Source: a virus
Strand: one strand, 5' to 3'
IMG/VR virus record: IMGVR_UViG_3300031951_000076
Coordinates: 24,671-88,670 of that record
Length of the DNA: 64,000 nucleotides
Under the pieces are notes generated by a model. That model had not been told where the DNA came from. It saw nothing but the letters and a program-made list of their open reading frames with translations, and did not search any database. Each line of letters starts with the position of its first letter. Position 1 is the stretch's first letter. Position numbers and translations under genes: made by a program. Positions 63,866 through 63,997 of the stretch are shown one piece after another.

Positions 63866-63879
63866 AATAAATAATTTAG

Positions 63880-63997
63880 CTGTAGGGGTAGGATTCGAAC
63901 CTACACGTTGACTATTCTCAACAAAAAGCTTATTTCTGTGGAGAATACTCAACACTATCGAGACAAGATAGCGTGTCTGCCATTTCACCACCCTACA
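63880..63997 (-). tRNA. Atypical tRNA / tRNA-like RNA, anticodon GUC (Asp), class II-type body with extra-long variable arm
   Basis: Acceptor TGTAGGG/CCCTACA, D arm GTG-AAATGGCAGA-CAC, anticodon stem CTATC/GATAG with loop TTGTCTC, T arm GTAGG-TTCGAAT-CCTAC, discriminator G, no encoded CCA. Confidence 0.75.

Follow-up and report, generated by a model that had tools for sequence, protein, structure and literature searches.

A tRNA-like RNA gene upstream of terL in a crAss-like phage, with relatives in a Bacteroidota family of Leu-type tRNA look-alikes bearing an Asp-type anticodon loop

The RNA gene at the end of the phage contig

The window analyzed here (64,000 nt) comprises the final 64 kb of a linear IMG/VR contig of 88.7 kb, which is 74% complete. 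A gene for a tRNA-like RNA was found 3 nt from the contig end and is followed on the same strand by a short open reading frame (ORF), terL, and the portal gene (phrog_6547), with the features summarized in Table 1. In an earlier examination without any database search (the sequence-only reading), the RNA had been placed just upstream of terL, and this holds with the 80-aa ORF in between.

Table 1. Features of the tRNA-like RNA gene and its neighbors in the window
Feature	Position	Strand	Remarks
terL, 731 aa	61438..63630	minus	phrog_6681, E 6.9e-68
ORF, 80 aa	63626..63865	minus	between the RNA and terL
tRNA-like RNA gene, 118 nt	63880..63997	minus	RF00005 match, fold, identical L084 copy, family covariation
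Acceptor stem, 5' strand UGUAGGG	63991..63997	minus	7 bp with CCCUACA at 63881-63887
D arm GUG-AAAUGGCAGA-CAC	63973..63988	minus	Leu-type, 3-bp stem, G18 G19
Anticodon arm CUAUC-UUGUCUC-GAUAG	63955..63971	minus	G34-U35-C36 at 63964..63962, U37 at 63961, C38 at 63960
Variable region, 50 nt	63905..63954	minus	19-bp rod, two 1x1 mismatches, loop UAAGC
T arm GUAGG-UUCGAAU-CCUAC	63888..63904	minus	canonical T loop

Position i of the RNA corresponds to 63998 - i in the window, with position 1 at 63997 and G73 at 63880; C74 follows G73 at 63879, and the CCA end is not encoded. U8 and G9 connect the acceptor and D stems, and the variable region is folded into three helices, namely GUUGA/UCAAC, UAUUCUC/GAGAAUA, and ACAGAAA/UUUUUGU. 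The two features by which class II tRNAs are recognized, a stem-loop variable arm of more than 10 nt and a 3-bp D stem, are hence both present. The stem lengths, the anticodon GUC, U37, C38, G73, and the hairpin arm had all been described in the sequence-only reading, and we found each of them in place on the minus strand. The RNA was calculated to have a minimum free energy of -44.7 kcal/mol, compared with -25.5 +/- 3.5 kcal/mol in shuffled sequences (z = -5.45), and none of 200 shuffles was as good. An intron with a bulge-helix-bulge motif in the arm was also considered but rejected, as only symmetric 1x1 mismatches are present there.

Searches for known RNA families gave divided results. 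In a local permissive Rfam scan, the general tRNA model RF00005 matched the RNA with 40.7 bits (E 2.3e-7; gathering score 29); the alignment spanned the full model (positions 1-71), and 47 nt of the variable region were accommodated as an insertion. ARAGORN, in contrast, reported no tRNA anywhere on the contig, inside or outside the window, and Rfam with default filters gave no match to the RNA; it is because of the long arm that the RNA was missed by both. A second IMG/VR contig (L084) bears an identical 118-nt copy together with its upstream flank, and the RNA is therefore not an artefact of the contig end. Judged from the predicted fold, the RF00005 match, the second copy, and the family covariation described below, the locus appears to be a functional gene for a tRNA-shaped RNA.

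The window TerL is 24-25% identical to the TerL proteins of Crassvirales and Flavobacterium phages, and the window phage is an environmental crAss-like phage, the DNA of which is contained in public sequencing runs labelled as freshwater, lake-water, or fungus metagenomes; no run of RNA was listed among them. The G+C content of the window is 32.6%, and Asn and Asp (GAY) account for 6.7% and 5.6% of its codons, respectively. The 80-aa ORF has no match in Pfam, PHROG, or NCBIfam; an ORF of ~87 aa is found at the corresponding position in 73 viral loci. In relatives of the window phage, the tRNA-like genes are those of Met, the AsnC-linked tRNA-like RNA described here, Cys, and sometimes Leu, and the RNA gene is 3 nt from tRNA-Cys and ~150 nt from tRNA-Met; the RNA is one of the very few tRNA-like genes kept by the phage. 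Recurrent neighbors of the RNA in phages are TerL, small ORFs, a PD-(D/E)XK exonuclease, and PhoH; among these, there is no synthetase or amidotransferase and no recurring partner protein, and an AspRS-type enzyme (PF00152) was not found in the five near-complete phage relatives.

Several additional features were noticed around these phage loci. In one phage group, a gene for a PhoH-like ATPase precedes the RNA in the same orientation and terminates ~11 nt before it (L205:3110-3763 and 25 other viral loci). On L084, the 146 nt that separate tRNA-Met(CAU) from the RNA (L084:5736-5881), which lie beyond the window's end, are visibly G+C-richer than the phage overall (32.6%) and may be another structured RNA; the tRNA-Met itself has a C1xA72 mismatch and is without the three G-C pairs of the initiator anticodon stem. 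Furthermore, near-complete relatives (G001:C1:115403-115512, minus strand, in L085; G005:C1:66887-66992, plus strand, in L086) have another unusual tRNA-like gene of the Leu type (106-110 nt), which possesses A73 and the loop UUCAAGA (CAA) in a disrupted, expanded middle region and matches the Rfam tRNA model with 38-39 bits. No counterpart of it was found in the contig of the window (74% complete).

A family shared by phages and Bacteroidota

Relatives of the window TerL were found in 303 IMG/VR stretches, the best 80 of which were used as loci, and a covariance model (R1) was built from 32 short and rod-armed members of the RNA family with the window RNA in the seed. By using R1, the RNA was detected upstream of terL in 49 of the 81 TerL-related loci (the best 80 of 303 plus L084), including those of all five near-complete relatives; the RNA is a core gene of this phage clade. 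The score of the window RNA with R1, 93.3 bits, is high by construction given its place in the seed, while bacterial members outside the seed scored 75-86 bits as opposed to no more than 58 bits for ordinary class II tRNAs.

Two pattern scans of IMG/VR, one on the D arm and loop and the other on the arm motif and T loop (no anticodon), together gave more than 100 distinct members of 90-171 nt among the matches listed, some of which are on jumbo-phage contigs. When species-representative genomes were scanned with the anticodon-free pattern, 101 stretches were hit, all of them in Bacteroidota, with Aquirufa, Chitinophaga, Saprospiraceae, Cytophagaceae, Flammeovirga, Spirosoma, Sandaracinomonas, Lewinella, and Flavobacteriales as the carriers. 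These stretches correspond to 73 distinct RNAs of 141-156 nt, and every one has YYGUCUC, U1-A72, and G73. Longer forms of 171-212 nt were found beside the AsnC-like regulator described below, the genome-wide RNA search having missed the forms of 170-212 nt. More than 150 distinct relatives with lengths of 90-212 nt are thus distributed over crAss-like and other phages as well as Bacteroidota chromosomes.

No dedicated Rfam family covers the RNA: in permissive scans of the window RNA, one phage member (158 nt), and one bacterial member, only the general tRNA model matched. No match to the RNA was found by blastn in the isolated-phage database, and no description of the family was found in full-text searches of the literature. 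The window RNA has the features common to the family, namely a Leu-type core, U1-A72, G2-C71, G73, and a loop of Y-N-G-U-C-U-C, and belongs to a family of class II tRNA look-alikes of the Leu type in Bacteroidota, as a member that is carried by a phage and has a simplified arm. The family combines an Asp-type anticodon loop, the Asn/Gln-type first pair U1-A72, and G73.

In the 32-sequence alignment, the whole structure was 97.9% paired, and 21 of the 25 pairs were changed on both sides, a result that none of 500 shuffles reached; controls in which the structure was slid gave 43-56% pairing. Pairing was complete (100%) in the four core helices, which showed compensatory changes at 16 of 20 pairs, and the base of the arm was 89% paired with all five pairs covarying. 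More specifically, all seven pairs of the acceptor stem were 100% paired, six of them being changed on both sides, and the anticodon stem was also 100% paired, with changes on both sides in four of its five pairs. U1-A72 and G2-C71 were each present in 50 of 50 members, and these two pairs together with C31-G39, U35, C36, and G73 are nearly fixed family-wide; G34 is fixed as well, save for two tandem copies with UUC in one bacterium. Position 37 is U and rarely C or A (C37 in one bacterium), position 38 is C and sometimes A, and position 33 can be U, C, G, or A, while G10, which is present in the window copy, is replaced with A or U in most family members. GUC is retained also in the members that were found by the anticodon-free searches. 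Pairing of the arm is hence conserved in homologues by compensatory changes, so that the RNA is not the decaying pseudogene that would have refuted the sequence-only reading; it is real and conserved.

That the RNA is a tRNA pseudogene in decay, or else serves in packaging together with the terminase or portal, might be suspected from its position directly ahead of terL and the portal gene and from the lack of an ARAGORN call; a role in packaging had indeed been proposed in the sequence-only reading. Every helix is, however, maintained by compensatory changes, and the RNA is not confined to those TerL-related loci (49/81) but is also encoded in bacterial chromosomes beside a regulator, and many phage copies reside in tRNA arrays away from terL. 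We thus consider that either possibility has a minimal chance of being correct, and the proposal of a packaging RNA is not supported.

The variable arm and the AsnC-like regulator

Across the family, the length of the variable arm ranges from 26 to ~130 nt. In most members, the arm constitutes a domain composed of P1, P1b, an internal loop GAUAAAC//GCUAAC, P2, an apical loop with the invariant GGGUUGACCAC, and an optional hairpin, and 25 of the 34 pairs predicted in this model have compensatory changes across bacteria and phages. The arm of the window RNA is not such a structured domain; it is a plain rod without the single-stranded motifs GAUAAAC, GGGUUGACCAC, and GCUAAC, all of which are replaced with a continuous helix, and it retains P1 and a P2-like helix, ACAGAAA/UUUUUGU (ACAGAAU/GUUCUGU in sister phages). 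Three distinct sequences, on six contigs, represent this rare subtype, and the helix is kept among them by compensatory changes such as UAUUCUC/GAGAAUA versus UAUUAUC/GAUAAUA. The window copy can therefore be viewed as a natural deletion experiment, in which the arm motifs are lost but the core, U1-A72, G73, and the GUCUC loop are kept. Because the phage copy is retained even without the arm motifs, the function that is needed by the phage would reside in the tRNA core, that is, the acceptor end and the GUCUC loop, and these sequence comparisons suggest the arm domain to be a module for control or docking on the host side.

No ribozyme or other family was detected inside the arm in permissive Rfam scans of the 158-nt phage member and the bacterial member. 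Some phage forms also have insertions at the D loop. In the forms of 169-170 nt (L077:2665-2834, L037:3408-3577, and 13 other TerL-related loci), a hairpin is inserted in the D loop and repeats UGUCUC in its own loop, and in other phage forms, short palindromic hairpins such as GCGUACGC are inserted at the D loop. Palindromes at the arm apex were examined as candidate loops for kissing dimers, but this idea was dropped, as they are mostly short hairpins and absent from bacterial members.

The RNA might be an uncharged tRNA mimic, the GUCUC loop of which (with the arm domain in most members) binds a protein or RNA, for example AspRS or a tRNA-modifying/sensing factor, and thereby regulates or sequesters its partner. 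This would be consistent with GUCUC being fixed while the adjoining position 33 is free, with the invariant single-stranded motifs, including GGGUUGACCAC, that are displayed on covarying helices of the arm, and with the linkage of a regulator to the gene; some support is also provided by the second UGUCUC that the phage forms of 169-170 nt display in the D-loop hairpin. Conservation of the acceptor end (U1-A72, G2-C71, G73, and C74) is, however, equal to that of the loop and indicative of chemistry at the 3' end, and the window and other phage copies are kept despite the loss of every arm motif. Also, no partner protein recurs beside the RNA in phages. We therefore find it unlikely, albeit worth keeping in mind, that the RNA works as a mimic without being charged.

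When the ORFs flanking the RNA in bacteria were clustered, a single recurrent partner emerged: a regulator of 154 aa, which is encoded at 67 of the 99 bacterial loci and is always upstream on the opposite strand (divergent) with a median gap of 137 nt. The regulator has Lrp/AsnC domains, and its best match in NCBIfam is the equivalog model of E. coli AsnC with 156-159 bits, which is below the cut-off of 227 bits, compared with 48-54 bits for Lrp. In a sample of 151 evenly drawn Bacteroidota genomes, an orthologue of the regulator (at least 52% identity) was present in 17, and the RNA was found in 15 of these 17, beside the regulator in 11 genomes and on another contig in four; the RNA was not found in the remaining two or in the 134 genomes having no orthologue. 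While these genomes are related to each other and give no clean probability, the link between the regulator and the RNA persists when the two genes are unlinked. Neighbors of the unlinked regulator copies were peptidases, a sigma factor, and transketolase-like genes, with no Asn gene among them.

By tblastn, the regulator was found neither in 2.5 Mb of phage loci nor in the window contig; the phage copies thus travel without it, and the window RNA accordingly has no divergent AsnC-like gene adjoining it. As another function, the sequence-only reading had mentioned a decoy for anticodon nucleases, but this fits poorly with a chromosomal host gene under regulation.

The bacterial loci show some further variation. 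In one genome (G144), two tandem copies of 109-110 nt (L403:2070-2179 and 2292-2400) adjoin an AsnC-like gene and have the loop CUUUCUC with the anticodon UUC (Glu-type) instead of GUC, which is the only departure from G34 observed. Flammeovirga (L345:6830-7582, L357, and L340) has two to four tandem copies of 155-156 nt at intervals of ~199 nt, with no AsnC-like gene beside them and in a genome with AsnB. In Chitinophaga, the RNA is followed directly by a same-strand gene for a TrmB-like methyltransferase (PF02390; L307:1396-2100, L339:4876-5577; 15 loci in the cluster), the place of which is taken by a peroxiredoxin in Aquirufa.

Charging, decoding, and the question of asparagine

The RNA resembles bacterial class II tRNA-Leu (RF00005) in its 7/5 cloverleaf, 3-bp D stem, long hairpin variable arm, and canonical T loop, and its D arm is nearly identical to that of an ordinary tRNA-Leu which sister phages (L078, L081, and L082) have at this position. 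This D arm is nonetheless all that is specifically Leu-like, since the RNA has neither A73 nor a Leu anticodon but G73, U1-A72 in place of G1-C72, and an Asp-type loop (GUC and C38) with U37; the variable arm, which is ~13-15 nt in tRNA-Leu, is 50 nt in the window and 26 to ~130 nt in the family. With bacterial tRNA-Asp(GUC), on the other hand, the RNA shares G73, G34-U35-C36, C38, C31-G39, G2-C71, and, in this copy, G10; the published Asp identity set is given as G73, G34, U35, C36, and C38 plus G10 and G2-C71 (PMC9976931). The body is, however, class II and not class I with a 4-5-nt variable loop, position 37 is U and not a purine, and U1-A72 replaces the strictly conserved G1-C72. The sequence-only reading is thus supported in describing a non-canonical RNA of the tRNA family, in which Asp marks are carried on a Leu-type class II body with U37.

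Mis-acylation had also been suggested: SerRS or LeuRS might recognize the class II body, and the RNA would then be a missense tRNA inserting Ser or Leu at Asp codons. The bacterial Ser identity set is composed of G73, C72, G2-C71, R4-Y69, C11-G24, and a large variable region (PMC9976931), and the RNA has part of it, namely G73, G2-C71, A4-U69, and the long arm, in addition to the Leu-type D arm. Two Ser determinants are, however, replaced with A72 and U11-A24, and the main Leu determinant, A73, is replaced with G73; also, conservation of C38 and GUC is not required by SerRS or LeuRS. When 39 GAY codons of the window terL were compared with a TerL of 25% identity, furthermore, the aligned residues were D in 10 and E in seven, but L in two, S in one, and N in one. 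A missense tRNA is, therefore, very improbable. In the same comparison, the GAY codons are aligned mostly with D/E and hence specify Asp, by which codon reassignment was rejected.

Allo-tRNAs, substrates of SerRS with 8/4 or 9/3 acceptor/T stems (Mukai et al. 2017, PMC5389517; reviewed in PMC7609411), are similar to the RNA in being long-armed, of the G73 type, equipped with unexpected anticodons including GUC, and found in metagenomes. The RNA is without C72 and C11-G24, however, and its 7-bp acceptor and 5-bp T stems are both 100% paired with compensatory changes, so that an allo-tRNA is ruled out.

Another possibility is that the RNA is a genuine, albeit oddly shaped, isoacceptor of tRNA-Asp, which is charged by AspRS, delivered by EF-Tu, and reads GAU/GAC; as a variant, it might serve as a spare that is regulated or withstands nucleases, U37 and the class II body concealing it from an enzyme directed at normal tRNA-Asp. 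The full tRNA scaffold with the canonical T loop and G18 G19, the Asp identity marks, and the GAY codons, which make up 5.6% of window codons and still mean Asp, are in line with a decoder. Also, the gene is placed among true tRNAs in phage clusters, 3 nt from tRNA-Cys, and the shortest phage forms (90-96 nt) have the size of ordinary class II tRNAs with no steric bar to the ribosome, both of which argue against a function off the ribosome. Among the 10 phage arrays with the most tRNAs (16-25), however, nine contain a normal-size tRNA-Asp(GUC) together with the RNA, as do 15 loci in all, and bacteria must have one too; given this co-residence, the RNA is not simply the Asp tRNA of the phage. 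Several features are furthermore unlike those of a decoder: a fixed pyrimidine at position 37, position 33 free among U, C, G, and A, arms up to ~130 nt, hairpin inserts in the D loop of some members, and U1-A72 fixed where bacterial tRNA-Asp has G1-C72. A dedicated AsnC-like regulator would be unusual for a tRNA gene as well. The RNA thus probably does something other than routine codon reading, and we assign a low probability to the decoder and its variant.

Our reading of the RNA was changed by its family context, that is, the link to the AsnC-like regulator, the fixed U1-A72, and the co-residence with normal tRNA-Asp. We tentatively favor an aspartate-charged carrier, which would act mostly off the ribosome and possibly serve as a platform on which GatCAB makes asparagine; charging, amidation, exclusion from the ribosome, and the benefit to the phage are all inferred. 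The RNA would be transcribed within a small phage tRNA cluster and processed as a tRNA, as the placement of tRNA-Cys and tRNA-Met in relatives suggests, and host AspRS may then charge it with aspartate by recognizing G73, G34-U35-C36, C38, G2-C71, and, in this copy, G10. The charged RNA would mainly be a specialized aminoacyl carrier off the ribosome rather than a routine decoder of GAY codons. In the most specific version, GatCAB would read U1-A72 and convert the bound Asp to Asn; the host may switch on this route of Asn supply through the adjacent AsnC-like regulator, and in the AT-rich phage, 6.7% of whose codons are for Asn, the RNA would be present with neither the regulator nor the conserved arm motifs.

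The part concerning GatCAB and asparagine is weakly supported. Amidotransferases require U1-A72 and reject G1-C72, an antideterminant as in tRNA-Asp (PMC9976931), and the window RNA possesses the former and not the latter; U20a is a further antideterminant for GatCAB, the position of which is difficult to assign in the class II D loop. With U1-A72 and G73, the RNA resembles tRNA-Asn of the indirect pathway, where non-discriminating AspRS and GatCAB cooperate, and could take Asp and present it to the amidotransferase; the linkage to the AsnC-like regulator and the presence of gatB in all 15 RNA-bearing genomes would also fit such a setting. Unlike tRNA-Asn, however, the RNA has the anticodon GUC and not GUU, with which a discriminating AspRS would suffice and the product would be unusable at Asn codons, and the family has the giant arm and no statistical link to absence of AsnA/AsnB.

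Indeed, gatB was present in 15/15 RNA-bearing genomes and 126/151 genomes overall, a marginal difference (p ~0.05), and gatB is near-universal in the phylum, so that its association does not discriminate. AsnB-type genes were found in 12/15 genomes with the RNA, compared with 71/136 of the others, which is the opposite of what would be predicted if the RNA replaced asparagine synthetase, and such a replacement is thus not supported; AsnA was present in only four of the 151 Bacteroidota genomes. In three isolates with the RNA adjoining the AsnC-like gene, AsnRS was present with no AsnA and with no AsnB above the cut-off, but this pattern did not generalize.

Asparagine supply could matter for this AT-rich phage genome, in which Asn and Asp make up 6.7% and 5.6% of codons, respectively. 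It is thus conceivable, though doubtful, that the whole family represents an RNA cofactor for amino-acid biosynthesis: a tRNA look-alike off the ribosome, which would be loaded by AspRS, allow GatCAB to convert Asp to Asn, be controlled by an AsnC-type regulator in bacteria, and have been captured by AT-rich, Asn-hungry phages, stripped of the regulatory arm, to raise the supply of Asn in infection.

For annotation, the family is of practical consequence, as standard tRNA finders miss such genes or call the short ones tRNA-Asp. If the RNA indeed acts off the ribosome, a major bacterial phylum would have a widespread and regulated tRNA-derived RNA with a non-decoding job, and many phages would have borrowed it.
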